The notes under the pieces were generated by a model, which was given only the letters and a program-made list of their open reading frames with translations, ran no database searches and was not told the origin of the DNA. The position numbers and the translations under genes were made by a program. This document shows positions 4,083 to 44,336 of a stretch of DNA of 44,336 bases, piece after piece. The DNA is from a virus: positions 1 through 44,336 of IMG/VR virus record IMGVR_UViG_3300031578_000104; one strand, given 5' to 3'. How positions within the stretch are numbered: position 1 is the stretch's first letter; the number at the start of each line of letters is the position of its first letter.

Positions 4083-4325
4083 TTATATGCGTTTCAATAT
4101 CTCTAAATACATAGCAGTTAATGAAGCAAGTAACACACAAAGCATAAAGATTGCAAAAACCCAGGGTATAAACTTATTTTTTATGTCGTGATACTTTTTG
4201 TATTTACGATCAAGATTCCATTCCCATTCCTTGATTTTGTCGCCAGCAAAAGATACAAAAAATACAATTCCAATCAATCCAGCCATGCCACCTATTAAAA
4301 TCAAAAATGATACTATATACTTCAC
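4083..4325 (-). CDS. Two-TM small membrane protein (paralog of 19962-20204)
   Basis: 80 aa with AGGAGG SD. Two hydrophobic helices flank the charged loop DKIKEWEWNLDRKYKKYHDIKNK. About 52% identical, ungapped, to the 80-aa product of 19962-20204. Confidence 0.8.
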   Translation of the reverse strand: MKYIVSFLILIGGMAGLIGIVFFVSFAGDKIKEWEWNLDRKYKKYHDIKNKFIPWVFAIFMLCVLLASLTAMYLEILKRI

Positions 4326-5626: not shown

Positions 5627-6367
5627 TTAAACCATTTCTGGGGCCAGGAGGCCTCCAGCATTTTTAATGACCTGGCGAAGCCTACGGTTTTCCTCCGCCA
5701 CCTTCTGGGTTTCCCTGCTAATCTTTAAGAGTCCAGCCACAACAAAAGCCTTATTTGCTGGCTCCTCCGGCTTATGTTCACCCGCCTGAATCAACCCGGC
5801 CTGTTCCGCTACCTGCATAACCTCAATCTCCCATTGTTCCGGCACTGTTTTTTCCTCCTTCGTTGGTTCGTAAAAAATAAAATAGTTGAGTGATTGCTGC
5901 CTGAAAATGTCATAGCTTGCCTTGGTCCTCGTTTCCGAATTTGGATCGTTGACAAGGATCTGATCGCCACCCTCCGACAACCCCCACAGTAGGATGTAAT
6001 GACCTATTGTGGTGAAATATCCAGGCCCCATGCTTGCCACGACCAGAGCACCCTTTTTAAGGGCCTCAATGGCTTCGTTGGTCAAACTGGTCTGTTTAAA
6101 TTCCAGACCATACTTTTTCGCCGCAAAATCAAAGAATCCCCAGGCAACACCATTATTGTAGGTGCGATAAAAGTTATCCACGATCACCGTGGCCACATCG
6201 GGAGGCTTTATGTTCTGGTCCAGAAATGTGGCCAGCACCATTGCGAAGGATGCAGCTCCGCAGCCTGAAGTTGCAATCGTTTGTTTGGGGTCCCCGTGAC
6301 TGCTAAATGTTATGTATCCCCATCGGGTATCGTATTGGAGATAGTGAATAGGTTTGGTTGTCCGCAT
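5627..6367 (-). CDS. Endolysin candidate: peptidase C39-like cysteine peptidase domain protein
   Basis: ATG 6367 with a GGGGGTGA SD. Motifs TSGCGAASFAMVL (Cys) and GHYILLWG (His) are typical of Peptidase_C39_2-type cell wall hydrolases. Lies next to the XhlA-like gene. Confidence 0.65.
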   Translation of the reverse strand: MRTTKPIHYLQYDTRWGYITFSSHGDPKQTIATSGCGAASFAMVLATFLDQNIKPPDVATVIVDNFYRTYNNGVAWGFFDFAAKKYGLEFKQTSLTNEAIEALKKGALVVASMGPGYFTTIGHYILLWGLSEGGDQILVNDPNSETRTKASYDIFRQQSLNYFIFYEPTKEEKTVPEQWEIEVMQVAEQAGLIQAGEHKPEEPANKAFVVAGLLKISRETQKVAEENRRLRQVIKNAGGLLAPEMV

Positions 6368-6371
6368 CGAA

Positions 6372-6575
6372 TCACCCCCTTCTCTCAAGCAGGTTAGCCA
6401 CCAAAAGCAAAAGGGACAAAATACTTGTCCCCATTAGGCCCATGAACCAATATTGAAACCTGTCCAGTTTTTTTTCCATCCTAACTGCCCCTTCCTGTAA
6501 GCTTTTAATTTCGGTTTCAGTTCTAGTCAGCCTTTCCCGAACTTCAATCTCAGTCAATGTTCCACCCCCTGGCAA
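6372..6575 (-). CDS. XhlA-like lysis membrane protein
   Basis: 67 aa. N-terminal coiled coil (LTEIEVRERLTRTETEIKSLQE) plus a C-terminal TM helix (FMGLMGTSILSLLLLVANLL), the architecture of haemolysin XhlA family lysis proteins. Confidence 0.6.
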   Translation of the reverse strand: MPGGGTLTEIEVRERLTRTETEIKSLQEGAVRMEKKLDRFQYWFMGLMGTSILSLLLLVANLLERRG

Positions 6576-16613: not shown

Positions 16614-16934
16614 TTATCCCTCCTTGTGCTTGGCCCGAATATGGTTAGCCAATCCTGACGGGCTGGCCGCTTTGAAGCCGCAGACAGAACAAGTAAGACC
16701 ATCATCTGTACTGCCAGCCTGCTCTTCCTCTGCTTCCTCGGCCTGTACTTGGGCCTGCTCCTTAACCTCAATCAACTCTATTTCTTCGTGCTGGAAATGC
16801 GGCCCCATCCTTTTGGCAAGTGCCTTGTCCAGAGTTACATACTCGCCGTTCTCGTCGAATTTAAACATGGTCAGGCCGGTATTACCGTCGCTGACGGGGT
16901 GGCCCGGATTGGAAAAGAATCTATATGCTTTCAT
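16614..16934 (-). CDS. Small protein with a C-terminal C2H2-type zinc finger
   Basis: 106 aa. CSVCGFKAASPSGLANHIRAKH fits C-x2-C-x12-H-x4-H. An acidic linker precedes it. Confidence 0.6.
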   Translation of the reverse strand: MKAYRFFSNPGHPVSDGNTGLTMFKFDENGEYVTLDKALAKRMGPHFQHEEIELIEVKEQAQVQAEEAEEEQAGSTDDGLTCSVCGFKAASPSGLANHIRAKHKEG

Positions 16935-17371: not shown

Positions 17372-18205
17372 TTATATAGTGCTCTCAGCCGCAGGAGTCA
17401 GTGTCAGCCTGACAAGCTCCTTGGGCCGGACTACTTTGCCACCCCACACCTGGAGAGACTTGACAGCATCGCCAAACCTCTTTTGGGGCCGGTAGGCTTC
17501 GGTTTCAGTCAACTGTGCCGCGAATGATACAGCCGCCTTGGTACGGGCAAGGCACTCGTAGGCAGAACCATTCACGACAATGTTATTGGACTCGTATACG
17601 TCGAATCCAAGCAGGTTGCCGAGGTAGCCGGTTTCAATGCGGCTGTCGTTTTTGGTTCCCCTGATGATCTTCGCCAGAATTATCTTGGTTGCGATTGCCG
17701 GCGACACCTCAAGGTATTTGGTGGTGCCCTCGGGCACGTTCACGGTCTTGAAATACTCCGCTGCCTCGGCAATGGCACTGAAGATGTTTGCAGTGGTCAA
17801 TGCGGCCTGGGCTATGGTTTTGCCGGCATCGGTGTACTTTCCGAATATAAAGGTATCCAAGTCGCCGGCCATGGTAATGCCCATCTGCCGCTTTTGCTCC
17901 TCCCAGAAGCCTTTACGGGTCTGTGCGGCGTCCAGGTCGTCAAAGCCGATGTGTGCATACTTGGCCTGGTCGATTACCAGATACTGGGCCGCCGAGGTTC
18001 CGAGGTCGGGGTCGGCAATGTCGGTGTTACGGGTGTAAGTCTTTGACACAACCGGGCCAACGGTCAGAATTTTCACCTGATCGCCCTGCTGCTTGATTTC
18101 ACCCTCATAATCAGTGTTGCAGTGCTTAACGCCTATGAGCACCTTGTCGCGCTCTTTCAGCACGTCCTCTGCCCATAGCATCGGGATGAAGTTTTTTGCG
18201 CCCAC
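17372..18205 (-). CDS. Major capsid protein (P22-coat-like family)
   Basis: 277 aa. The N-terminal NFIPMLWAEDVL...YEGEIKQQGDQVKI resembles the P22 coat family N-terminus. Follows the scaffold gene. Confidence 0.75.
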   Translation of the reverse strand: MGAKNFIPMLWAEDVLKERDKVLIGVKHCNTDYEGEIKQQGDQVKILTVGPVVSKTYTRNTDIADPDLGTSAAQYLVIDQAKYAHIGFDDLDAAQTRKGFWEEQKRQMGITMAGDLDTFIFGKYTDAGKTIAQAALTTANIFSAIAEAAEYFKTVNVPEGTTKYLEVSPAIATKIILAKIIRGTKNDSRIETGYLGNLLGFDVYESNNIVVNGSAYECLARTKAAVSFAAQLTETEAYRPQKRFGDAVKSLQVWGGKVVRPKELVRLTLTPAAESTI

Positions 18206-18241: not shown

Positions 18242-19108
18242 TTATTTCCAGCGCTTTTCTGACTCTTTAACTGCCTCGTAATTGGACCTGATTTCCTCAC
18301 GGCTCATTGCCGTGACCTGATCCCGGGTGAAGAATGTTCCTGACTTGCCCTGGCCCTTGGCGCTGCCTGTTGAGCTGTCGGCGTTGGCATGGTTGGCATC
18401 GTTAGCCTGTGTCTGTGCCCTGCGCTGTTTGTCGTTGTACCGGGTCAGCGCATCGGCCAGTCTACGCCCTTCCCTGCCACCGGATTTAAGCCACTTTTCG
18501 GCCTCGGCGAATACTTCCCTGGGGATGGCTTTCCATTTTTCTTCCGTGTTGTAATCCGGGAACTCTGTCGTGAATTCGTCATACATGGAATTGCGCCTGT
18601 CGATGAAGTCTTTTTCCCCTTGGGTCTTGCGGTCGGATTCTTCACGGGCTTTCCTCTCGGCCATGGTTTCCTCACGGAAGCGTTTGCTTTCGAGCAGTTC
18701 ATTTAAAAGTTCATCCGGCACATTGGCATATTGTGACCGTATTTTATTCTCAAGTTCCTGCTCTTGCAGGGCTTGCTTGTACTCGGCCTCCGTGGTAATC
18801 GGCTTGCCTTTCCACTCATAACTCTGCTCGGCAATCCATGAATCACGGGCTTGTTGAGCCGCTTCCTGTCTGGCCCTCTCGATACCCTTGTCGTAGTTCA
18901 TGCCCTTTTGGATGTGCTGAACCGCTTCCTCATAAGGTAATTCAAATTCTTGGTGGTTGTACTTTACCTTGATTTTTTGCGGTTCCGGTGTTTGCTCGAC
19001 CTGCTGAGTGGTGTTCTCTTGGGTCGTTTCCTGTGTAGTTTCATTGGTTACTTCTTGGGTTTGCTCCTGACTTACTTCACTCTGGTTGGTGAATTCGTCC
19101 ATTAACAA
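18242..19108 (-). CDS. Scaffolding protein
   Basis: 288 aa, highly charged and Glu/Gln/Lys-rich helical sequence directly upstream of the capsid gene. Confidence 0.7.
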   Translation of the reverse strand: MLMDEFTNQSEVSQEQTQEVTNETTQETTQENTTQQVEQTPEPQKIKVKYNHQEFELPYEEAVQHIQKGMNYDKGIERARQEAAQQARDSWIAEQSYEWKGKPITTEAEYKQALQEQELENKIRSQYANVPDELLNELLESKRFREETMAERKAREESDRKTQGEKDFIDRRNSMYDEFTTEFPDYNTEEKWKAIPREVFAEAEKWLKSGGREGRRLADALTRYNDKQRRAQTQANDANHANADSSTGSAKGQGKSGTFFTRDQVTAMSREEIRSNYEAVKESEKRWK

Positions 19109-19168: not shown

Positions 19169-19192
19169 TCAAAAAAGCACTCCTAAGAGTGC
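19169..19192 (-). terminator. Strong rho-independent terminator closing the glycosylation island
   Basis: The - strand reads gcactc-ttag-gagtgc followed by ttttttg, 14 nt after the stop of 19206-19952. Confidence 0.75.
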
Positions 19193-19205
19193 AGGGAAAG
19201 GTATT

Positions 19206-19952
19206 TTATTTTGGAAAAGCGGCCTCATACCCGCCCTTTGCCATGTATTTGTCGTATAGATCCGGCCTATAGATATGAAATGACGGATAATGGGTATCAA
19301 TCCATATTTTGTAGCCAGCACATGCCGCCCGGACACAGAAGAACCTGTCCTCCCCATCAAAGCCAAGGTTGTAAATATCGTCATAACATACGCCGCGCTC
19401 AAACACGCTCCTGTGCAGGAGGATACAAGCCCCGGTCTGTCCTACCTCGTAGGTTCCCGGCCTCAGCCATTGGGCTACATGGTCGTAGTCAACACCAGAA
19501 TAGCTGTCGAACATCCAGCAGTTGGGCAGTGGCTGGCCTTTTTTGTCCCAGCGCGTCCAAAATATCTCAGCAACAATGTCCTTCTTGGTTTCCAGGAGTT
19601 GCACCAGCGTTTTAGGGTGTAACATGAGGTCTGTATCAACAAAGAAAATGTAGTCATACCCGTTTTCAAGGGCGAATTTGGCGATCCCGTTTTTCATCTT
19701 GATAATGTTTGCAACCAGCTTTGAAGTCCATAAATGCCGGTTCTCGTCGCTCTTGTATTCGTCGTCTGTCTTGTACTCAGCAAAAAAACATATCTCCGGG
19801 TGCGCCTTAATCAGCGGTATCAACTCTGGGGAGTTGTGCAAAATAAAAAGCCTGTCGCATTGACAAGGCTTTTCGAGGTTTTGCAGTGATTTAAGGTATT
19901 CCCGGAATATCTCCGGGTTTTGCCGAGCGGGGGCTGCAATTAGGATTTTCAT
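19206..19952 (-). CDS. Glycosyltransferase (GT-A fold, DxD = VDTD)
   Basis: 248 aa. MKILIAAPAR..., YDYIFFVDTDLMLHP, GEDRFFCVRA motifs typical of GT-A enzymes. Confidence 0.7.
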   Translation of the reverse strand: MKILIAAPARQNPEIFREYLKSLQNLEKPCQCDRLFILHNSPELIPLIKAHPEICFFAEYKTDDEYKSDENRHLWTSKLVANIIKMKNGIAKFALENGYDYIFFVDTDLMLHPKTLVQLLETKKDIVAEIFWTRWDKKGQPLPNCWMFDSYSGVDYDHVAQWLRPGTYEVGQTGACILLHRSVFERGVCYDDIYNLGFDGEDRFFCVRAACAGYKIWIDTHYPSFHIYRPDLYDKYMAKGGYEAAFPK

Positions 19953-19961
19953 TGTTCCTCC

Positions 19962-20204
19962 TTAAATCCATTCCACTATTTGGAGATAAATCGCAACCAG
20001 ACTTGCTATGAGAATACAAGAAAAAACCACCATAAATATCCAAGGGCCTATATTCTCTTTGAAGTGGCGGTATTTCTCATACTTCCGATCAAGATTAAAC
20101 TCCAATCCTTTAATCTTGTCCCCTATGTAAAGCACTGAAAATGTGAGTCCGACGATTCCTGCAAGTCCACTCATTAAAATTAAAAATGCCCATATGTATT
20201 TCAT
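19962..20204 (-). CDS. Two-TM small membrane protein (paralog of 4083-4325)
   Basis: Second ATG (20204) has proper SD spacing (AGGAGG, 8 nt). The 80-aa product aligns ungapped with the 4083-4325 product (42/80 identical by my count). Confidence 0.8.
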   Translation of the reverse strand: MKYIWAFLILMSGLAGIVGLTFSVLYIGDKIKGLEFNLDRKYEKYRHFKENIGPWIFMVVFSCILIASLVAIYLQIVEWI

Positions 20205-20206
20205 GC

Positions 20207-20800
20207 TCATATCCTCCTAAAAACTGCATGGTAACAGTACAGTCCGCAGTTATCCTCCCGTATAGCGTCCTGTGGCGGGTCTTTTTGGTACTCGGCATAC
20301 TTGAACCCTTCCGCAATTTCAAACAGCTCTGCGGGCCTCCTGATACACGAATAGCGGCCATCCATTGTTAGGTCCAGGGTCAACACAAGCCTGCCCCCAG
20401 GCTTCAGCACCCGGTAAAACTCCTGCAACACCCTCTTAGCTGTGTCATAAGGCAGATGTTCCAACACGCTTATGCAGTAGATTGTATCTACATCAGCATT
20501 GCACAGCGGTATATTGTCAATGCTGGCCACGATGTGAAGTATGTTCCGGTGCGCCTTGCTGTTTAGCAGATCAGGGTTGATGTCTATACTGAACACCTTG
20601 CAGCCATTCTCAGCCAGCTCATATTGAAAGGGGTAATTCGGGCCGCTGCCAGCATCGAGTACGGTTTCGCCCGGCTTAATCAGTTGTTTGGCCCATATAT
20701 ATTCATACAGGCGGCTCCACCATACTTCAGGTATAGTAAAGTCGTATACTTTATTGCATTTCTCGTCCCCGGTGGTGAAATAGGCGTTATCCAAGGTCAA
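20207..20800 (-). CDS. Class I SAM-dependent methyltransferase
   Basis: 197 aa. Motif I VLDAGSGPN and post-I/III motifs (LKPGGRLVLT). Confidence 0.8.
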   Translation of the reverse strand: MTLDNAYFTTGDEKCNKVYDFTIPEVWWSRLYEYIWAKQLIKPGETVLDAGSGPNYPFQYELAENGCKVFSIDINPDLLNSKAHRNILHIVASIDNIPLCNADVDTIYCISVLEHLPYDTAKRVLQEFYRVLKPGGRLVLTLDLTMDGRYSCIRRPAELFEIAEGFKYAEYQKDPPQDAIREDNCGLYCYHAVFRRI

Positions 20801-20806
20801 TCCTCC

Positions 20807-21436
20807 TTATTTCTGAACCCACATATAATAATCGTCCCATCCCTTTAATAAAGTCTGTTCCTCAATCTCGCACTTAGCAAAGGAACTGCCCAGCTCCTGC
20901 GCCTGTTCCTTCGTGAAGCACATACAAGTATTGTAATTGATGTAGTCCGGTTTGTTTTCCAGCTTCGGCAGATGTATACACGCCCACCCGCCGGGTTTCA
21001 GTGCCTTTTTAATCTTCCGGATTGTTTTTATCTGCTCGTCATATGTATTATGCTGGACCACCTGGAAGCAGATAGCCAAGTCGCAGTAGTTTTCCTTGTC
21101 AAATTCGCTTGCCAGTATAAGGCTGACATTGACCAGGCTGTACTCGCTGGCCTTGGCGTTGGCCGCATCTAAGACAATGGGCGAAATATCAACTCCGGTA
21201 TACTGCTTGCATTCCTTTGACAAGACCCTACCTATCCTCAGATTGCCGCAACCCCAGTCAACGATTATGTCTATCGGTTTTTGGGACCTCTTTCTAAATC
21301 CCTCCATCACCTGACGCGCGTTAAACTCGCCGCATCGGTTGTAATCTTCCTCCGGCATGGGTGGAAAGAACCGATCATTACCCATATTCCCGGTTATGTT
21401 GGCGTATGGGTTCACGGTCACGCTTACTTCATACAT
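20807..21436 (-). CDS. Class I SAM-dependent methyltransferase
   Basis: ATG 21436 with an AGGAGG SD, 8-nt overlap with the upstream gene. Motifs IVDWGCGNLRIG and LKPGGWACIH. Confidence 0.8.
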   Translation of the reverse strand: MYEVSVTVNPYANITGNMGNDRFFPPMPEEDYNRCGEFNARQVMEGFRKRSQKPIDIIVDWGCGNLRIGRVLSKECKQYTGVDISPIVLDAANAKASEYSLVNVSLILASEFDKENYCDLAICFQVVQHNTYDEQIKTIRKIKKALKPGGWACIHLPKLENKPDYINYNTCMCFTKEQAQELGSSFAKCEIEEQTLLKGWDDYYMWVQK

Positions 21437-22115
21437 CAGCAAACCTCCTGAGAATCGGGGTAGGGTCAAGAATGCTTTGATACTGCCCCATACACCCGCT
21501 TTTCCCTTCGGGGTCGGCCTCCATATAGCGCCCATACTTCTCCTGCCTATCTTCCGGCCGAGCCCAGCCCCAGTGCTGTATTCTAACCGGGCAAGTGGCT
21601 ATTCTTACCCCGGCATTCATCGGGAACCTGCCGCAATGAAGGGGAGTTTCCTTCCAGAAGCAATCAATATCCTCATATTTCACACAGAAGGGCCACACGC
21701 CATTGTGGGCCTGCCAGTAGTGATCATCACGGTAATGCGTCTCTGACCACATGTCAAATAGGGTGAATGCAAGGCTGTTACACTTGGCCGCCTCTGCTTG
21801 CTGTATGTAGTCCCGTATTAGGTCCAGCCGGTCAAAGGTTTCGTCGGCATCGAGGCAGAGGATCCAGTCTCCGAATTTTGCCTCATGTGTCGCCAATTCC
21901 CAAAGGAATTTTCTTTGTCTCAACTCATCTGTTCCCCAGTATGAGCGGTCAGAGTAAAAGACGTCAGCACCATAGGCCTTGCATATCTCCGGGGTATCAT
22001 CGGTTGAGCAGTCATCCAGGACTACGATCTTGTCACAGACTGACCGCATCTGCTCAAGGACTTTTTCAAGGTAGCGGCCTGACTCATTTCTGACCAGCAT
22101 CGCGCCAATTAACAT
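21429..22115 (-). CDS. Family-2 glycosyltransferase
   Basis: 228 aa. LVRNESGRYLEKVL..., VVLDDCSTDDT, ILCLDADE (DxD). Confidence 0.8.
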   Translation of the reverse strand: MLIGAMLVRNESGRYLEKVLEQMRSVCDKIVVLDDCSTDDTPEICKAYGADVFYSDRSYWGTDELRQRKFLWELATHEAKFGDWILCLDADETFDRLDLIRDYIQQAEAAKCNSLAFTLFDMWSETHYRDDHYWQAHNGVWPFCVKYEDIDCFWKETPLHCGRFPMNAGVRIATCPVRIQHWGWARPEDRQEKYGRYMEADPEGKSGCMGQYQSILDPTPILRRFADV

Positions 22116-22692
22116 AATGCGCCTCCCCTATCGTCTCGACGTTGCAATGGCCACACACAAGCGTAGTATCGCAGAATATCCTAAATCCTGCCCCCCGGGC
22201 CCGAACACAAAAAGATAGGTCTTCGCCCAGTATCTTGTGCGGGAAGAACCACGGCTGCGGTACGGTCTCGAACACTTTACGCTTAATCAGTGTACATGCC
22301 ATGCCCACGCCCTCAATCTCGGTCAAGCCCTTTGGGTAGTCAAGGTAAAATTTGGCGTCCTGTTCGTTGCACTCCTTGAATATGCAGGGCTCATACCCCG
22401 GGGTACGCCGAAAGGCCAAAGCGGAAACTATATCCTTGTCGGCCTCGATTAACTTCGTGAGCAAGTCCACCGGGACCACCATATCCGAATCAACGAATAA
22501 CAGGGCATCGTATTCCCCCTGCAAGAATGCCTTGACCGCTTCTTCCCGGGCCGTATAGACAAGGCTTAACCCGATGGGCAGCATATCAACGCTGACGCCC
22601 TTGTTACGTGCATGGCAAGCCATAGGGATAAGAGAATAAGCTGCCTGTGGTGCGACATAGCCGGTGTAGGGGATACAGATTAAGGCTTTCAT
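22084..22692 (-). CDS. Glycosyltransferase (GT-A-like, DSD motif)
   Basis: 202 aa. ALLFVDSDMVVP and GEDLSFCVRAR motifs; overlaps the next GT by 32 nt. Confidence 0.65.
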   Translation of the reverse strand: MKALICIPYTGYVAPQAAYSLIPMACHARNKGVSVDMLPIGLSLVYTAREEAVKAFLQGEYDALLFVDSDMVVPVDLLTKLIEADKDIVSALAFRRTPGYEPCIFKECNEQDAKFYLDYPKGLTEIEGVGMACTLIKRKVFETVPQPWFFPHKILGEDLSFCVRARGAGFRIFCDTTLVCGHCNVETIGEAHYVNWRDAGQK

Positions 22693-22700
22693 GTGGCCTC

Positions 22701-22898
22701 CTAATTAACTTTGTTTCGCACTACTGCCGCAACTTTCAATGGTTCATTCAGGTTTGTCCCCGCACATGTCCCGCATTTGGGATTGACACAGACAAGAAGC
22801 AGCTCCACATAAACATCGCTACTCCCTACCTCACTTTTATACTCACTATGCGACACCATCAAGGGTTGCTTGCACTCCAGACACTCCACCGCCTCCAC
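22701..22898 (-). CDS. Cys4 zinc-ribbon small protein
   Basis: 65 aa with CLEC...CVNPKCGTC; overlaps the portal 3' end by 53 nt. Confidence 0.5.
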   Translation of the reverse strand: MEAVECLECKQPLMVSHSEYKSEVGSSDVYVELLLVCVNPKCGTCAGTNLNEPLKVAAVVRNKVN

Positions 22899-24678
22899 CT
22901 CCTACCATCATTTGAGATTCTTGCGCTATCGCCGCCTGTAACTCCGGCGATAACTGACCGATAAACTGCTCAAAGGCCTCCATTTGCTCCTGCATTTTGG
23001 CCTGCTGCTCCTGTTGCTCCACCTCTTCGATTAAGCCCTCTTTGTCGGGGATAAGACCGCTTGCGATACGCTCCAGGTACTGTCTGAAGGTGATCAGCTG
23101 TTTGTCTAGTAGGCTGTCCAGGGTCTGAATAGAAGCGATCTCCGACCACTGAGTAGAGGCCCCCACGTCGATCTTGAGACTGAAAGTTGTCTGGCTGTAC
23201 TGCGAACCATCGAACGGTATCTGTACGACCTCCGACTGCTTTGTCTCGGGGTTGGTACGTTCAATCGTCAGCATCCGGGGGACACTATACTTTGTCAGCC
23301 AGTAGTCCAGCCATATAAGCCCCTGATCCTCTTTAAACTGTGCGAATCTGCGTTTGTTGGTGGACAGCGGCAGGACTGACGCTTTTTGCAGGGCAATAAT
23401 ACCGGCTGCGGTCTTGGTTACACTGTCATCACCAAGGGCTGTCTCATTTGCCCCGGCCATGTCCTTTGTGGTCTGCACCAGCATTTCAAAGAGGTTTTGA
23501 ACACTGGCGGGAAGTCCCTGCGGCTGGAGATACATAGCCGCGCTCGTTATGTCACCATCTACCGGTATTGCTTTGGTTATATCGTTTGACCATGCCGGGA
23601 TCCGGGAAGAGTCGTAAACAGGTTTGGGGTATGCGTTTATCATTGTCCACAAGATCATGGTCGCCATTAATTTGTTGATCGCGATATTGTTCGGGATTAA
23701 CTCCGTGGCCTCGGCCTCACCGTGACAACTATTTTTGCGTGGTGTCCACTGTAGGGATGCCACCGGGTAGCGGTGTAGTTTGGTATCCCAATCCTTGCGA
23801 ACTACAGCGGCCTGTGTGGATTTCCTGGCCCATATGGTGGTCACCCTATCCATAAGTTGCTTGCCTGTCTGGTCCATCATCGGAAACCCTGCGGGGTCAG
23901 TTTTGGGTATCTCCTCTGTCTTGGTCCACATCTTCAGCAGGACAGTGCAGAAACCGCCCTCATTGTCCTTATTGGGTTCTTTCTTGGCCCTGTCTCCTGC
24001 CCGGTACTGAGTATCACTGTCGCCGGTGATTTTATCTATCTCTTCCTTCGGTGCCTTGTTTCGCTTGGCTTCCTCTCGGACTTCTTTAACCAACTTACGA
24101 AATGACAAGATGATATAAGGCTGTACCGGCCCTCTCTTGTCGTTGGGCCTTGGGTCGCTGGTATTGCCTGGGAAGTAGCACACGTTGTCAATCAGTTCCC
24201 CGTTCATGTCGCCCATGACCGCGGCGCCCATCTCATTAACACCGGCATTAATGGTATCGTCCCAGTAGTAATAGATAATGCCATCACCGGACAAGGCGGC
24301 ATCAAAAATGGCCTGCTCGTCAAGGGTAGACTGTTTTAAGTTTTCATCGACTGTTTTTGAGTAGTCAGAGAGTAACCTTGCCACCTCTTGCAGCATGGCA
24401 ATCTTGTCCGGGTTGGCCGGGTCATAATTGGCTGAGTTCTCGGCGCTAAACTGCATGGTCAGCATGTCTGACATGATCTGACTGACCTTCCAATTGACTA
24501 TCCTTTTAGTCACGTTTAACCGGACCTGTGGCAGCCCCCCGGTGTCTACTCCGTCCCAGTGGTGGCCGGCGTAAAACCGTTCATTTCGGTTAGTGGTGGC
24601 GAATAGGTTGAGGCTGGATTTATAGTCTATCCCGTCCTTATAAAGCTGCCAATCGACTGTTTGGGTCTGCTCGTCCAA
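22846..24678 (-). CDS. Portal protein
   Basis: 610-aa ORF directly after TerL. NERFYAGHHW motif and an acidic C-terminus with a Gly run; size and position typical. Confidence 0.8.
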   Translation of the reverse strand: MDEQTQTVDWQLYKDGIDYKSSLNLFATTNRNERFYAGHHWDGVDTGGLPQVRLNVTKRIVNWKVSQIMSDMLTMQFSAENSANYDPANPDKIAMLQEVARLLSDYSKTVDENLKQSTLDEQAIFDAALSGDGIIYYYWDDTINAGVNEMGAAVMGDMNGELIDNVCYFPGNTSDPRPNDKRGPVQPYIILSFRKLVKEVREEAKRNKAPKEEIDKITGDSDTQYRAGDRAKKEPNKDNEGGFCTVLLKMWTKTEEIPKTDPAGFPMMDQTGKQLMDRVTTIWARKSTQAAVVRKDWDTKLHRYPVASLQWTPRKNSCHGEAEATELIPNNIAINKLMATMILWTMINAYPKPVYDSSRIPAWSNDITKAIPVDGDITSAAMYLQPQGLPASVQNLFEMLVQTTKDMAGANETALGDDSVTKTAAGIIALQKASVLPLSTNKRRFAQFKEDQGLIWLDYWLTKYSVPRMLTIERTNPETKQSEVVQIPFDGSQYSQTTFSLKIDVGASTQWSEIASIQTLDSLLDKQLITFRQYLERIASGLIPDKEGLIEEVEQQEQQAKMQEQMEAFEQFIGQLSPELQAAIAQESQMMVGGGGGGVSGVQATLDGVA

Positions 24679-27702: not shown

Positions 27703-27710
27703 CGTATACT

Positions 27711-27782
27711 AAATCTAGTATAGGTGGGTATATCAAATCTAGTATAGGTCATCCCCTAACCTATATCATTTTTAGTATAGGT
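27711..27782. repeat. Iteron set B: AAATCTAGTATAGGT x2 plus TTTTTAGTATAGGT, with an inverted partial copy ACCTATA
   Basis: TAGTATAGGT at 27716, 27740 and 27773; the inverted acctat at 27759-27764. The last copy overlaps the stop of the wHTH gene. Confidence 0.8.
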
Positions 27783-28099
27783 CAATAGTGGGGTTCTTTG
27801 CGCCACTCGGCAAAATCCAGCATGTAATACTCGCTTGGTTTACCTGGCCTCTTGCTGATTTGAATTAAGCCTTTTGCCTCCAGCTGGTCAACGTGTTTTA
27901 GCACCGTGACCCTGCTTAATCCCCTGCAGTCCTCCGCTATCCTGTCTATGGATGGGTAGCAGGTCAAGTCCTCCTTATCAGCCCTGGACAGGAGCATAAT
28001 GTATATTAACAGGTCTATTGAGTCTATTTCCCGGCTACCTTTATCCCTCAGCCAGGTGAGGTAAAAGGCATTTATGGGGAGTATATTGTCTTGTCGCAT
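27782..28099 (-). CDS. Winged-helix DNA-binding protein (replication-initiator/HTH_36-like)
   Basis: 105 aa. CYPSIDRIAEDCRGLSRVTVLKHVDQLEAKGLI is a typical wHTH (MarR/DnaD-N-like) segment. Confidence 0.6.
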   Translation of the reverse strand: MRQDNILPINAFYLTWLRDKGSREIDSIDLLIYIMLLSRADKEDLTCYPSIDRIAEDCRGLSRVTVLKHVDQLEAKGLIQISKRPGKPSEYYMLDFAEWRKEPHY

Positions 28100-28310: not shown

Positions 28311-28715
28311 ATGCTTAAAAGTGAGCTTGCAAAAAACATCAACGCAGTAAAAGACCTCGGCAGAATCATAACAACAAATTTTGAATTAGACTTTACCGAA
28401 GGCACAATATATGACAACCACGGAAAGGTTGAGAGCTGGACGGACAGAGACAACTCAAAAGTTGCCTTTATCCCCGAAACTACAGGCAAAATAATGTACG
28501 TCCTGCACTGTGACCAGGTCCCCTGCCACGCCGTAGACTACAGTAATGCAGAAGAATGTGACCTGCTTGGCGCTACCGACTGCGAAAGTGAAGCCGAATG
28601 CCTAGTACCCTCCGACACAAAAATGAGAATCACCTACGTATCTAGCGAAGATGATTATAGAGAAATGGACTACTATCTAATAGAGTTTGAGTTGGTCATA
28701 GATGAAGAAGAATAA
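28311..28715 (+). CDS. Acidic hypothetical protein
   Basis: 134 aa, strongly acidic C-terminal half (SSEDDYREMDYYLIEFELVIDEEE), first gene of a + strand operon. Confidence 0.6.
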   Translation: MLKSELAKNINAVKDLGRIITTNFELDFTEGTIYDNHGKVESWTDRDNSKVAFIPETTGKIMYVLHCDQVPCHAVDYSNAEECDLLGATDCESEAECLVPSDTKMRITYVSSEDDYREMDYYLIEFELVIDEEE

Positions 28716-29019
28716 CATTAACGACATCCTTATCCAGTTAGACCAACCTGCCTCAGATTATGAGTTAGAGTACAAAAAAATTAAAATAAAAACTAAAAAA
28801 GCCGTTGTCCGAAGAAGGTACGGCGGGAGGTTGCCAAATAAATTTTTATCTGATGCAGATTGGCTGAAAGAAGCGTATGAAACCTCTAGTGTAAAGCAAC
28901 TAGCCGCTAAACTTAACGTAATCCCTGAAAGTATTTTGTATTGGCTAAAGAAGCACCAAATACCTCGCAAAGAAGTTGTTGTTAGGCGCACTAGAAAGTC
29001 AAAGACCGAGGAGGATTGA
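28702..29019 (+). CDS. Basic protein with a C-terminal HTH
   Basis: 105 aa. SVKQLAAKLNVIPESILYWLKKHQI is a helix-turn-helix; Lys/Arg-rich flanks. Confidence 0.55.
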   Translation: MKKNNINDILIQLDQPASDYELEYKKIKIKTKKAVVRRRYGGRLPNKFLSDADWLKEAYETSSVKQLAAKLNVIPESILYWLKKHQIPRKEVVVRRTRKSKTEED

Positions 29020-32291: not shown

Positions 32292-32549
32292 CTAAAACCT
32301 ATTTGCCACCAACATTTCCCGGACAGCCGGGGTAAATTTCTTCGGCTCCCCAAAGGCTCCCCCGGGGCGCTGCCCGATCTTCCCCCTGTCGGCCTGGTCA
32401 ATTACGATAAAAGCTATCTCTGCCGGTTTACGCTTCAATTTTTGTGCAATATCGGCTATGTCATTGCCGTTTTTCCAGAGGTTGCGGAACTTAGTTAGGT
32501 CCTCCGGGGTCCACTGAAAATTGTATTGTTCACAGGCTGTGTGGATCAT
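32292..32549 (-). CDS. Small HTH (Myb/GcrA-N-like) protein
   Basis: 85 aa; WTPEDLTKFRNLWKNGNDIADIAQKLKRKPAEI. Confidence 0.35.
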   Translation of the reverse strand: MIHTACEQYNFQWTPEDLTKFRNLWKNGNDIADIAQKLKRKPAEIAFIVIDQADRGKIGQRPGGAFGEPKKFTPAVREMLVANRF

Positions 32550-33162
32550 GGGTCTCTTCCACCTCCCTGATTATCCAGCCAATTAACTTGCCGATTGCCG
32601 GCACGACTGCGTTTCCGCACATTCTGGCAATTGCTGCTTCAGAAAATCCAGCAAACCATCCCGGAGGGAATCCGGCAAAGGCTGTTCGCTCATCACCGTC
32701 CAAGATTCGGAGTGCTCCGTCAAAAACATAACTGTCGCGGGAATCGTATCTGCGCCGGTTTGTAGTAAGACACGGAATGACCTGCCTCTCGCCACAGCGC
32801 GGCGAATAATACCTCTGACTCCTCTGGGCTTGACATAGCTGTCCTGCATGGCTTGGCCAGGAGGTTTTAATACTTCCGATAATAAAATCCCTGACCCTTT
32901 GTTGCCCTGTAAACGTACTGGCGTCCGTCCGGATAATAGCGCATCGGTATCCAAGTACATCCAGTGCGGCTTCAAAGTGGACATCATCTGGTGCAGGAAC
33001 ATTTTCGCGGACCACCCACCGGGGCAGGCCGGGGTAATGCTTTTCTAGAACCTGCTGACATATGCGGTTTTTCTCAACCTGCCACGCCGGTTTAAATCCT
33101 GCATCCTCAAACCCTTTGTCTAGGCCGCCAGCTCCCGAAAATAAACTCCCAAACGTCAGCAC
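32530..33162 (-). CDS. DNA (cytosine-5) methyltransferase-like protein lacking the catalytic motif IV region
   Basis: GTG 33162 after GGGAGGGG. Motif I FSGAGGLD, motif VI RENV, motif VIII QQRVRDFIIG and motif X GNAVVP are present. No PCQ motif; KHYPGLP is joined directly to RWVVRENV. Confidence 0.7.
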   Translation of the reverse strand: MLTFGSLFSGAGGLDKGFEDAGFKPAWQVEKNRICQQVLEKHYPGLPRWVVRENVPAPDDVHFEAALDVLGYRCAIIRTDASTFTGQQRVRDFIIGSIKTSWPSHAGQLCQAQRSQRYYSPRCGERQVIPCLTTNRRRYDSRDSYVFDGALRILDGDERTAFAGFPPGWFAGFSEAAIARMCGNAVVPAIGKLIGWIIREVEETHDPHSL

Positions 33163-33197
33163 CTCAACCCCTCCCTTTCCTCCCAACTCTCCACGGC

Positions 33198-33398
33198 CTA
33201 TTTTGCCACCCTGGCGATCTGCGGTTCCCAATTATGTGGCGGGGCACTCCTGAACTCAGCTAACCCCTCAGTCAACACCTCGCCCCTTACCCCAGAAAGG
33301 TGCTTTCTCATGTACCTTCCTTGCCCGGCTATCGGCATTTTTAGCAGTGTGTCCCTGTGCTCCTTGCACCACTCGTAAACCTGCCATTTGTTCATCAT
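33198..33398 (-). CDS. Hypothetical protein overlapping the dnaB 3' end in another frame
   Basis: 66 aa, ATG after GAAAGGGA. The sequence MMNKWQVYEWCKEHRDTLLK... looks protein-like, whereas the co-located DnaB tail is Arg/Gly-rich. Confidence 0.4.
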   Translation of the reverse strand: MMNKWQVYEWCKEHRDTLLKMPIAGQGRYMRKHLSGVRGEVLTEGLAEFRSAPPHNWEPQIARVAK

Positions 33399-42569: not shown

Positions 42570-42758
42570 TCAGCGGCAGGCACTTCCTCGGGTTCCATAG
42601 CCTTCTGATGCTTGGGTCTTTTGGTTGATAGACACTATTGATCCGATTGATAACAGTTCACTCCTTTCGTTTAGACTTTTTCTTATCTCGTCAACCCGTT
42701 CCCTGACAATCATCCTAATTATGTCCGCAGTCCAGGGGCCGGGAGGATAATCTAACAT
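42570..42758 (-). CDS. Hypothetical protein
   Basis: 62-aa ORF overlapping the upstream stop by 7 nt. Confidence 0.45.
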   Translation of the reverse strand: MLDYPPGPWTADIIRMIVRERVDEIRKSLNERSELLSIGSIVSINQKTQASEGYGTRGSACR

Positions 42759-43663
42759 TCCACAAACACCCCATTAACCAGTTGGTAAAACGTATCTGAC
42801 TTAATTTTTTCACCATCTACCATAGCACACTGAACATCTTTTATGCGATCTCCACCTTCGTCCCACTCAGCAAGAACGATCCAACATCCAAGGGCACCCC
42901 TAGCTTTACTTTTGTAGCCGGTTGCAATAGCGACTGACTCTTTGCCCTCAACGGTGGCTGCGCTCCGGTCTCCGGTGTTGGTGGCTGCGCTCCGGTCTCC
43001 GGTGTTGGTGGCTGCGCTCCGGTCTCCGGTGTTGGTGGCTGCGCTCTGGTACCCGGTGTTGGTGGCTGCGCTCTGGTCTCCGGTGTTGGTGGCTGCGCTC
43101 TGGTACCCGGTGTTGGTGGCTGCGCTCTGGTACCCGGTGTTGGTGGCTGCGCTCTGGTCTCCGGTGTTGGTGGCTGCGCTCCGGTCTCCGGTGTTGGTGG
43201 CTGCGCTCCGGTCTCCGGTGTTGGTGGCTGCGCTCTGGTACCCGGTGTTGGTGGCTGCGCTCTGGTCTCCGGTGTTGGTGGCTACGCTCTGGTCTCCGGT
43301 GTTGGTGGCTGCGCTCCGGTCTCCGGTGTTGGATTTTTTTTTATCATCCCAATTCACCCGGTCAAGAATAAACTTAACGCCAGCCTCAATCAGTCCAGGT
43401 AGTTTAATTTCAGCGCCAATCTTTATTTTTGTGCAGGCAACCTTGCTATCGTCATTGTGCCTATCCGTTTCTCCGTCACCCTCAACCTCTGCAAAGCGGC
43501 TGTCGGCTGGTTGGTAATAGCTAAAAATATCCAGTGGGTTCTCGCAAAAGTGAAATCCTTTCTGGCAGGCTTTGGCTTCCCTTTCCTCGTACTCGCCGCC
43601 GATTTCGTATTGGAAGCCTTTGCATTTTAGATCTTTGTCAAATCCCTTGAATCCTTTAATCAT
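42752..43663 (-). CDS. Repeat protein: Cys-containing N-domain (DUF7666-like) + 14 nonapeptide repeats (ATNTGD/Y-Q/R-SA) + C-terminal domain
   Basis: ATG 43663 (MIKGFKGFDKDLKCKGFQYE...GFHFCENPLDIFSYY) after GGGAAGGA. Repeats read directly. The family name is from memory. Confidence 0.75.
   Translation of the reverse strand: MIKGFKGFDKDLKCKGFQYEIGGEYEEREAKACQKGFHFCENPLDIFSYYQPADSRFAEVEGDGETDRHNDDSKVACTKIKIGAEIKLPGLIEAGVKFILDRVNWDDKKKSNTGDRSAATNTGDQSVATNTGDQSAATNTGYQSAATNTGDRSAATNTGDRSAATNTGDQSAATNTGYQSAATNTGYQSAATNTGDQSAATNTGYQSAATNTGDRSAATNTGDRSAATNTGDRSAATVEGKESVAIATGYKSKARGALGCWIVLAEWDEGGDRIKDVQCAMVDGEKIKSDTFYQLVNGVFVEC
42953..43330. repeat. Tandem repeat, 14 x 27 bp, near-identical units of three types
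   Basis: Unit ggtggctgcgctccggtctccggtgtt. Variants differ only at ccg/ctg and tctcc/taccc, plus one gct>gcta change. Unit starts at 42953 + 27n. Confidence 0.97.
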
Positions 43664-43692
43664 GGTATCCGTCCTTCCCGGCCTACATGGCC

Positions 43693-43821
43693 CTAACTCG
43701 TCTGTGACACTGGCTGATACCTCACGCACACCGGACACTTGGCACAATCGTCACACTCCTCTGTTATGCGCCCCGTACACTTTGGATTTATGCAGTTCTG
43801 GCAACAGGTGTCGGTTTTCAT
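43693..43821 (-). CDS. Cys8 mini-protein (42 aa)
   Basis: ATG 43821 after AAAGGAG. Product MKTDTCCQNCINPKCTGRITEECDDCAKCPVCVRYQPVSQTS. Confidence 0.5.
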   Translation of the reverse strand: MKTDTCCQNCINPKCTGRITEECDDCAKCPVCVRYQPVSQTS

Positions 43822-44055: not shown

Positions 44056-44286
44056 TTAGGATTCGGTTCCGGTTGGATTTTGGGAAATCTCATCACATTT
44101 ATCATCAAAAAATTTTTGCCAACGAAACCTGAATACCTTACCCAGATTCTTAGCGACCTTAACGCTGGGCACTTGACCGGCTTCTATCTTGGCTATGTAA
44201 GACCTGTCCACACCTGTCATTCCGGCAACTTTTTCCTGTGTCCAGCTTTTTTTGATTCTCAGGTCCACAAGCCACCTATTGTCCAT
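44056..44286 (-). CDS. XRE-family HTH protein (Cro-like, first gene of the leftward early operon)
   Basis: 76 aa. WTQEKVAGMTGVDRSYIAKIEAG is HTH_3. Divergent from the repressor gene across the circular junction; its 5' end is duplicated at 1-77. Confidence 0.8.
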   Translation of the reverse strand: MDNRWLVDLRIKKSWTQEKVAGMTGVDRSYIAKIEAGQVPSVKVAKNLGKVFRFRWQKFFDDKCDEISQNPTGTES

Positions 44287-44336
44287 CGGTGCACCTCCTT
44301 CTGTGAATCTATATCACAATTATAATGTGAAATCTG
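44210..44336. repeat. Terminal direct repeat, copy 2 (identical to 1-127)
   Basis: Same 127-nt string as bases 1-127. Confidence 0.97.

Follow-up and report, generated by a model that had tools for sequence, protein, structure and literature searches.

A candidate head-protein glycosylation cassette in the variable portal-scaffold slot of a temperate phage

IMG/VR virus record IMGVR_UViG_3300031578_000104 was analysed over its full length of 44,336 nucleotides (hereafter the window), with attention to an island of glycosyltransferase (GT) and methyltransferase (MT) genes lodged in its head module. The seven open reading frames (ORFs) that an earlier note on this DNA had listed in the island are all present on the minus strand at 19206-22898, between a P22-like portal gene and the scaffold and major capsid protein (MCP) genes. 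Read along that strand, they encode a 65-aa Cys4 zinc-ribbon protein (22701-22898), a first GT (GT1, 22084-22692), a second (GT2, 21429-22115), two MTs (MT1, 20807-21436; MT2, 20207-20800), an 80-aa protein with two transmembrane segments (19962-20204; maximum 19-residue hydropathy 2.77) and a third GT (GT3, 19206-19952). The genes overlap or abut, as the note had described, with intergenic gaps of -32 to +9 nt and an AGGAGG-type ribosome-binding site before each; GT3 lies 97 nt from the scaffold gene. All five enzymes are predicted to be soluble (maximum 19-residue hydropathy below 1.5, no transmembrane segment), and the 80-aa protein is the sole membrane protein of the island. No flippase or polyprenyl-phosphate transferase was found alongside them, and none of the island proteins received a specific assignment from NCBIfam.

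The three GTs carry the motifs previously read from the sequence. GT1, a 202-aa enzyme of the GT-A type, bears DSD; GT2, a 228-aa enzyme assigned to family 2 by Pfam (Glyco_tranf_2_4, 5.8e-10; Glycos_transf_2, 2.4e-9), bears DDCSTDD and DAD; and GT3, a 248-aa GT-A enzyme, bears VDTD. Both GT1 and GT3 fall below Pfam cut-offs, with weak matches to Anp1/GT62 only, and both match the phage family phrog_1574 (1.3e-20 and 1.3e-7, respectively). They are 32% identical to each other over 132 aa (E 1e-13) and, by this sequence likeness, are paralogues. AlphaFold2 models gave confident GT-A folds for both, with pLDDT values of 95.6 (GT1) and 93.4 (GT3). In the family alignments, residues D68, S69 and D70 of GT1 are invariant among 43 sequences, as are D106 and D108 of GT3 among 37.

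Comparison of these models with known structures by Foldseek placed enzymes that glycosylate proteins at the top. The best Protein Data Bank (PDB) match of GT1 is A197 of the archaeal virus STIV (8.8e-12; template-modelling (TM) score 0.68/0.71; 22% identity), followed by COLGALT1, LH3, Mimivirus R699, Mnn9 and ppGalNAc-T2. GT3 is matched by COLGALT1 (1.7e-14; TMq 0.74), the GT domain of LH3/PLOD3 (3e-11), Mnn9 (4.4e-10) and Mimivirus R699 (1.1e-9), and its family profile also finds the N-terminal GT-A domain of COLGALT1 at the sequence level (5.4e-15). For GT2, which is variably present among relatives, sequence searches of the PDB yielded the Listeria flagellin glycosyltransferase GmaR (1.2e-7) and the SPbeta peptide S-glycosyltransferase SunS (1.3e-4). 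Judged by these sequence and model comparisons, each of the three GTs has as its top matches enzymes that glycosylate proteins or peptides.

The two class I S-adenosylmethionine (SAM)-dependent methyltransferases were likewise recognized by Pfam above its curated thresholds. MT1 comprises 209 aa from an ATG at 21436 preceded by an AGGAGG ribosome-binding site (Methyltransf_25, 2.3e-13), and MT2 comprises 197 aa (Methyltransf_11, 5.3e-16). MT1 has an orthologue of 87% identity in the close relative L088 and is missing from L165 and L001; orthologues of MT2 occur in L088 (86%) and L165 (83%). The MT2/MT1 pair adjoins the GT pair again in L088, L074 and L043, as does an MT2 homologue in L053, and methyltransferase homologues accompany GTs in many cellular loci, too. 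Sequence searches of the PDB with MT1 and MT2 found generic class I methyltransferases only. Overall, the searches with the GTs place protein GTs on top, and those with the MTs stop at the level of the class.

To place the island in context, IMG/VR was scanned with an MCP profile, and the loci recovered (cited here by their L numbers) were annotated with iterated local hidden Markov models. The island is flanked upstream by the portal gene (22846-24678, minus strand; phrog_156, 4e-23; P22_portal, 2.4e-6) and downstream by a putative scaffold gene (18242-19108, minus strand), which is named for its position only, matches the function-less family phrog_14606 (5.1e-13) and sits between portal and MCP in all relatives compared. 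The MCP gene follows at 17372-18205 (minus strand; phrog_267, 4.5e-43). Across relatives, the portal-to-scaffold distance ranges from 68 nt (L094) and 100 nt (L095) up to 3,737 nt (the window), and the cargo from zero to three GTs and zero to two MTs. The slot is empty in L094, L095 and L158; it holds the zinc-ribbon ORF only in L097 and L107, that ORF and one GT in L106 and L109, two GTs in L104, GT1-GT2-GT3 in L001, L098 and L099-L102, GT1-GT2-MT2-GT3 in L089 and L165, and GT1-GT2-MT1-MT2-GT3 in L088. The window has the content of L088 plus the two-transmembrane ORF. Because relatives hold varying contents at varying lengths, the portal-scaffold junction is, on comparison of these loci, a variable cargo slot with modular, exchangeable content. 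The island had been described as an insertion into the head module; the GT/MT block between portal and scaffold is real, but it represents one state of a variable slot rather than a one-off insertion, and portal and scaffold are indeed contiguous elsewhere (L094 and L095). In the prophage L006, on a 237-kb metagenomic contig (8320-10004), the same slot contains a 382-aa methyltransferase and an Rv2179c-like 3'-5' exonuclease ahead of a GT3 homologue.

This survey also separates the likely pathway genes from their neighbours. By its pattern of occurrence, the paralogous GT1/GT3 pair is the conserved core, and GT2, MT1 and MT2 are accessory genes that would diversify the glycan. The zinc-ribbon ORF, which overlaps the 3' end of the portal gene by 53 nt and has only weak family matches, had been counted as an island member. 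It sits between portal and scaffold in L097 and L107 as well, and since it is kept in these relatives without any GT, sequence comparison identifies it as a backbone gene of the head module and not as island cargo; it probably stands outside the glycosylation pathway. The two-transmembrane ORF found no match in family searches. It is 53% identical (E 1e-29) to ORF 4083-4325 (minus strand), which also encodes an 80-aa two-transmembrane protein, and is missing from the close relatives L088, L165, L001 and L007. It is thus a window-specific duplicate of ORF 4083-4325 and looks like a recent passenger, probably not a pathway component. ORF 4083-4325 itself lies downstream of putative holin (6372-6575) and endolysin (5627-6388) genes and adjoins small regulatory ORFs.

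Between GT3 and the scaffold gene lies a terminator-like hairpin on the minus strand, GCACTC-TTAG-GAGTGC followed by T6 (19177-19192, read from 19192 to 19177). Its 6-bp stem contains four GC pairs, and the 61-nt fold has a z of -1.9. In L088, a hairpin at the equivalent position has another stem (AAGCCC/GGGCTT) and an identical tail, TTTTGATGC; comparable hairpins with a different stem occur in L004, L013, L106 and L111, and several other relatives have none. The feature had been called a strong intrinsic terminator: a terminator-like hairpin is present and recurs in relatives, but its strength is modest. A simple scan of the coding strand within the island found no sigma-70-like promoter. 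The arrangement suggests that the transcription unit of terminase and portal runs on through the island and ends there, with a new unit starting at scaffold and MCP.

Relatives of this cassette are widespread among uncultured viruses. A profile of GT3 found relatives in at least 437 IMG/VR contigs and in 476 species genomes of GTDB, mainly Bacillota with spore-formers prominent, and only four weak matches in 50,697 GenBank phage records. A nucleotide search of the same GenBank records with the 7.9-kb region gave no match. Synteny was tallied over the best 80 of the at least 437 IMG/VR loci encoding a GT3 relative. In 14 of these 80, the order is that of the window, portal-GTs-scaffold-MCP. A further 58 have an HK97-type siphovirus module, in which a large terminase subunit (TerL), portal, protease, MCP and a protein of ~130 aa are followed by GT1, GT3, a head-tail adaptor and, further on, the major tail protein; this order was confirmed with PHROGs for L024. 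The remaining eight loci were too short or could not be assigned. The GT pair therefore adjoins a capsid gene in 72 of the 80 loci, and does so in two unrelated types of head module.

Viruses beyond this set place related GTs among structural genes as well. Homologues of GT1 occur in 35 Mycobacterium phage records, and among the matches listed are Optimus-like genomes of ~110 kb (Cluster J). Two Methanobacteriales viruses carry GT homologues within their structural modules. The structural module of the archaeal virus PhiF1 includes a GT placed five genes ahead of the capsid gene. In the Methanobacteriales virus vir323 (L164, BK063679.1, 6866-12880), the GT is found one gene upstream of a tail protein with 31 GXY repeats, and a tail fibre protein with 21 GXY repeats is encoded further downstream. 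GT1 relatives are also present in 77 Synechococcus phage records. In Prochlorococcus phage P-SSM2 (L247, NC_006883.2, 70230-72597), the GT1 homologue PSSM2_106 lies between two 2-oxoglutarate-Fe(II) oxygenase genes and is closely followed by the baseplate wedge genes gp25, gp6 and gp7. Such a pairing of a hydroxylase with a collagen-GT-like enzyme calls to mind lysyl hydroxylase/glycosyltransferase systems.

In bacteria, domains resembling GT3 and GT1 mostly reside within fusion GTs of 500-660 aa in multi-GT clusters. Protein O-glycosylation in the cytoplasm classically acts on flagellins and on collagen-like proteins of the exosporium, and genes for flagellins and collagen-like proteins recur beside these homologues. 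Five of 80 cellular loci adjoin flagellin or FliD; for example, L219 has the order FliC, GT, GT3 homologue, GT4 and, further on, FliD, and in Paenibacillus gallinarum a flagellin gene is followed by a GT2, the GT3 homologue, a GT4-family protein and then FliD. Homologues of GT3 are located between fliC and fliD in genomes of Paenibacillus, Cytobacillus, Defluviitalea and Tepidanaerobacter and in one Atribacteria metagenome-assembled genome (MAG). Another 15 of the 80 loci, from Clostridium, Paenibacillus, Sporosarcina, Brevibacillus and others, adjoin genes for collagen-like (GXY)n proteins, whose repeats number 9 to 339. Because flagellin and collagen-like genes are few per genome, we infer an enrichment well above chance, by judgement rather than computation. 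Large fusion GTs with GT3/GT1 domains stand beside collagen-like proteins in L203, L234, L235, L236, L224, L244, L178, L217 and others, including MAGs assigned to Peptococcaceae and Solirubrobacterales; the enzymes of these loci possibly glycosylate proteins of the exosporium type.

Which protein might accept the glycan was examined within the structural module. The MCP of the window has the C-terminal sequence ...TPAAESTI, and GT-bearing relatives have MCPs that terminate in ...AES[ST]I or ...ESSG. The last eight MCP residues contain a mean of 3.2 Ser/Thr in GT-bearing relatives and 1.55 in those without GTs, a difference confounded by phylogeny. This pattern is suggestive by analogy, as it recalls the C-terminal glycosylation of mycobacteriophage capsid subunits, and it makes the MCP tail a candidate acceptor as a hypothesis only. 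The small structural protein p122 had been put forward as an acceptor for its Ser/Thr richness, an argument that did not hold: p122 is equally Ser/Thr-rich in relatives lacking GTs, and its composition is therefore uninformative. Nor does p122 represent a post-MCP acceptor common to both head modules, as comparison with the ~128-aa protein of the HK97-type loci showed no homology (BLASTP E 8.9; hhalign probability 1.2%). A collagen-like acceptor in the window was also set aside, since only two 4-unit GXY runs were found, neither in a credible gene. The module further includes, between p122 and p96, a 106-aa ORF (16614-16934, minus strand) for which family searches gave no match; its product combines an acidic linker with a C2H2-like motif at the C-terminus (CSVCGF...HIRAKH).

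Taken together, these comparisons favour, with a probability of roughly 0.6, the reading that the block is a phage protein-glycosylation cassette for cytoplasmic O-glycosylation of the phage's own head proteins and O-methylation of the attached sugars. Virion decoration with methylated glycans, which the earlier note had proposed, is thus the best-supported reading, on account of capsid-gene synteny in unrelated head modules, structural likeness to protein GTs, and the cellular loci for flagellin and collagen-like proteins. The cassette would be transcribed late in infection together with the terminase-portal unit. Working in the cytoplasm with nucleotide-sugars of the host, the three soluble GT-A enzymes would initiate and lengthen a short O-linked glycan on a head protein, most likely the MCP and possibly at its Ser/Thr-bearing C-terminal tail, and MT1 and MT2 would O-methylate the sugars of that glycan. 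Glycosylation would take place before or during assembly, so that decorated subunits would yield glycan-coated virions.

Several points weigh against this interpretation. Its support is entirely comparative and structural, and the acceptor is a candidate only. A GT-A fold does not fix the acceptor, and polysaccharide and teichoic-acid GTs (TarP, K4CP and SpsA) also occur lower in the Foldseek list of GT3. The MTs are generic and may act on a protein or a small molecule. Most cellular homologues are found in large multi-GT clusters with no assigned product. The correlation of MCP tails with GTs has exceptions (L158 and L118) besides its confounding by phylogeny, and the MCP possesses just a short C-terminal Ser/Thr motif, with no long extension. 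Neither a collagen-like nor a flagellin-like acceptor was found in the window, and a BLASTP comparison of the island enzymes and other window proteins with gp108-110, the experimentally proven GTs of mycobacteriophage Che8, gave no match at E <= 0.01.

The enzymes might instead act on the host envelope. TarP is a prophage-encoded wall-glycopolymer enzyme of Staphylococcus aureus, and the cassette could, in a TarP-like manner, remodel an envelope glycopolymer (wall teichoic acid, a secondary cell-wall polymer or an S-layer glycan) at the cytoplasmic face, thereby blocking superinfection or keeping progeny off cell debris. The phage is indeed temperate, with an integrase gene at 1310-2464; TarP, SpsA and the chondroitin and hyaluronan synthases appear in the Foldseek list at E ~1e-7; many cellular homologues belong to large multi-GT clusters that could make polysaccharides; and a terminator-like hairpin ends the island, as is often the case for morons. 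However, the cassette is part of the late head operon, well away from the integrase and immunity region and with no coding-strand promoter of its own detected, its enzymes lack transmembrane segments, and flippase and lipid-carrier enzymes were not found. Moreover, the top structural matches are protein GTs rather than wall-polymer GTs, and an envelope function does not predict the adjacency to capsid genes seen in 72 of 80 loci. We therefore consider envelope remodelling unlikely. Still less probable is a surface protein of the host as the target (for example flagellin, pilin, an S-layer protein or a collagen-like protein of the exosporium), with an effect on the receptor or on host physiology rather than on the virion. 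The flagellin and collagen-like loci among cellular homologues, the resemblance of GT2 to GmaR and the concentration of relatives in spore-forming Bacillota would all agree with such a target; late-operon placement and conserved capsid adjacency, however, fit a head protein produced alongside the enzymes, in time as well as in place. In vir323, collagen-repeat tail proteins of the virus itself are encoded just downstream of the GT.

Glucosylation of DNA is the classic role of phage GTs, and the cassette might accordingly glycosylate hydroxymethylated bases to evade restriction. Diverse DNA GTs of phages have been reported (Pyle 2024, as cited in PMC12619734), and the genome includes a fragment of a C5-cytosine DNA methylase: ORF 32530-33231 (minus strand, 233 aa) matches just the first ~40 positions of the model and is possibly truncated or split. 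Yet Pfam scans of the larger ORFs, with those below ~90 aa partly scanned, found no dCMP/dUMP hydroxymethylase, thymidylate-synthase homologue or TET/JBP dioxygenase, and because no base-hydroxymethylation enzyme was found in them, this highly improbable reading is rejected. Its rejection agrees with the location of the cassette in the head module and not the replication module, with the protein GTs that are its closest structures, and with the MTs, which fall outside the DNA-methylase families.

To our knowledge, only a few mycobacteriophages have so far been shown to glycosylate their virions with enzymes of their own, a modification that protects the particles from antibodies. If head-protein glycosylation is correct for the cassette described here, glycosylated capsids would be a widespread feature of phages that infect anaerobic and spore-forming Firmicutes and would extend to some archaeal viruses, and a GT pair beside the capsid gene would be a simple genomic marker for them. 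A broader proposal, which we put forward tentatively and rate somewhat below even odds, is that hundreds of uncultured Bacillota phages, Cluster J mycobacteriophages and Methanobacteriales viruses have in common a mobile capsid-glycosylation module, of which the GT1/GT3 pair (phrog_1574; A197- and collagen-GT-like) is the mark. Glycan-coated virions would then be common beyond the actinobacteriophages, and a cargo slot at the portal-scaffold or MCP-adaptor position would hold interchangeable GTs and MTs that diversify the glycan, perhaps on the Ser/Thr-bearing C-terminal tail of the MCP. Head-protein glycosylation by the cassette would bear on phage-host and phage-immune interactions, on structural models of capsids, and on efforts to find compact soluble protein O-glycosyltransferases and sugar methyltransferases for phage glyco-engineering. 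It would also suggest a function for the long-unexplained island of Cluster J.

The genome that carries the cassette is complete. The ends of the window share an exact 127-nt direct repeat (1-127 recurs at 44210-44336), and the window is therefore a complete phage genome of ~44,209 bp (~44.2 kb), circularly assembled or terminally redundant. Pfam scans identified a temperate-type gene set, comprising the integrase (1310-2464), CI-like and helix-turn-helix (HTH) regulators, DnaB, a single-stranded DNA-binding protein (SSB) and a sigma-like factor, and by this gene content the phage is temperate. The nearest relative located is the prophage L165 in a Peptococcaceae MAG (JUEB01000017.1), with identities of 89% for the portal, 88% for the MCP and 91% for GT3; the host is thus likely a member of the Bacillota (spore-forming Firmicutes). 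Three 23-nt operator-like repeats (TATATCAAATCTAGTATAGGTCA) at 27705-27784 lie at the 5' end of a minus-strand HTH_36 gene (27782-28099) and upstream of a plus-strand CI-like gene (28702-29019), and probably constitute the immunity switch. About 20 tandem 27-nt units (42872-43411), each specifying a 9-aa repeat, are located inside the gene for a 331-aa DUF7666 protein (ORF 42752-43747, minus strand).

Among known systems, the head-module islands of Cluster J mycobacteriophages are close to the window in gene content and arrangement. In Optimus (gp12-gp21), Thibault, BAKA, Omega and LittleE, GTs and a SAM methyltransferase were described as 'non-structural' genes in the head module, with a role that was 'not known' in 2013 (PMC3706429). 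As in the window, GT and MT genes are found among those for head morphogenesis. In Optimus, gp12 directly follows the major head protein gp11 as the first gene of the island, which comprises GTs, a kinase and a methyltransferase and extends as far as the head-tail connector. Optimus gp12 is 31% identical to GT1 over 154 aa (E 4e-22) and matches GT3 at E 1.9e-4, and the methyltransferase gp14 shows a weak likeness to MT2 (36% over 75 aa). Thus, the earlier statement that virion glycosylation is not known in this architecture was too strong, as a head-module GT/MT island has been on record since 2013, its first GT is homologous to GT1, and the cassette occurs in at least 437 IMG/VR contigs. The two islands nevertheless differ in several respects. 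That of Cluster J lies between MCP and head-tail connector, a position also seen in the 58 HK97-type relatives of the cassette, whereas that of the window lies between portal and scaffold, upstream of the MCP; Cluster J has five to six GTs compared with three in the window, and its Ser/Thr kinase and Zn-protease have no counterpart domains among the island ORFs of the window. The hosts also differ, being Actinobacteria for Cluster J and likely Bacillota for the window.

The functional model adopted here is the virion glycosylation of the mycobacteriophages Che8, Corndog and Myrna, which has been demonstrated there and is proposed here on comparative grounds. Freeman et al. (2023) reportedly found little evidence of glycosylation outside actinobacteriophages. 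Three papers describe how phage-encoded GTs of Che8, Corndog and Myrna glycosylate capsid and tail-tube subunits at their C-termini (PMC11600133; PMC12619734; PMC12363180), and one of them reports that an O-methyltransferase, thought to methylate the sugars, accompanies the GTs of cluster O (Corndog-type) phages (PMC11600133). The window resembles these phages in encoding at least one GT of its own (three GT-A enzymes). The two class I SAM methyltransferases beside them are generic by family, and their substrates may be of another kind than in cluster O. The GT genes of Che8 lie at the right genome end, whereas those of the window lie in the head module.

Other viral enzymes offer partial parallels. 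A197 of STIV (PDB 2C0N) is essential and is the proposed enzyme for glycosylation of the STIV major capsid protein (PMC10551542). Like GT1, it is a minimal, soluble, virus-encoded GT-A protein of ~200 aa; STIV, however, is an archaeal double-jelly-roll virus, A197 has no partner GT/MT cassette, and its donor and acceptor are putative, too. COLGALT1, LH3/PLOD3 and Mimivirus R699 share with GT3 the GT-A fold, the DxD motif and, as a group, action on proteins, although identity is just 15-19%, the COLGALT1 match is limited to the N-terminal GT-A domain, and the eukaryotic acceptor is hydroxylysine; neither a lysyl hydroxylase nor a collagen-like protein was found in the window. For the pairing of GTs with an MT, A064R of PBCV-1 provides a precedent, as it combines two rhamnosyltransferase domains with a sugar 2-O-methyltransferase domain that methylates the glycan of the capsid protein (PMC7826918). 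The comparison is one of function. PBCV-1 belongs to the eukaryotic giant viruses and has N-linked glycans, and in A064R the activities are domains of one protein, whereas the window has separate genes.

Among cellular and prophage systems, flagellin islands of the GmaR type share with the proposed cassette cytoplasmic action on a self-assembling structural protein before assembly; their substrate is a cellular filament protein, whereas the window has no flagellar genes. A gtrABC-type or otherwise lipid-linked module was considered and rejected, as the island has no GtrA flippase, GtrB C-terminal transmembrane helices or polytopic Gtr, and the hydropathy of its enzymes stays below 1.5. Such modules are placed beside the integrase and attP, whereas the integrase gene of the window is ~17 kb from the island, which has no promoter-like site on its coding strand.

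In sum, phage-encoded virion glycosylation (Che8, Corndog and Myrna) and a head-module GT/MT island (Cluster J) are already known, and literature searches found no paper describing such a cassette in Firmicutes phages. What appears to be new is the likely host phylum, Bacillota, together with the portal-scaffold site as a variable cargo slot; the recurrence of a capsid-adjacent GT1/GT3 pair across archaeal viruses and hundreds of contigs from uncultured phages; and the link of phrog_1574-type GTs to the glycosylation loci of collagen-like proteins and flagellins.

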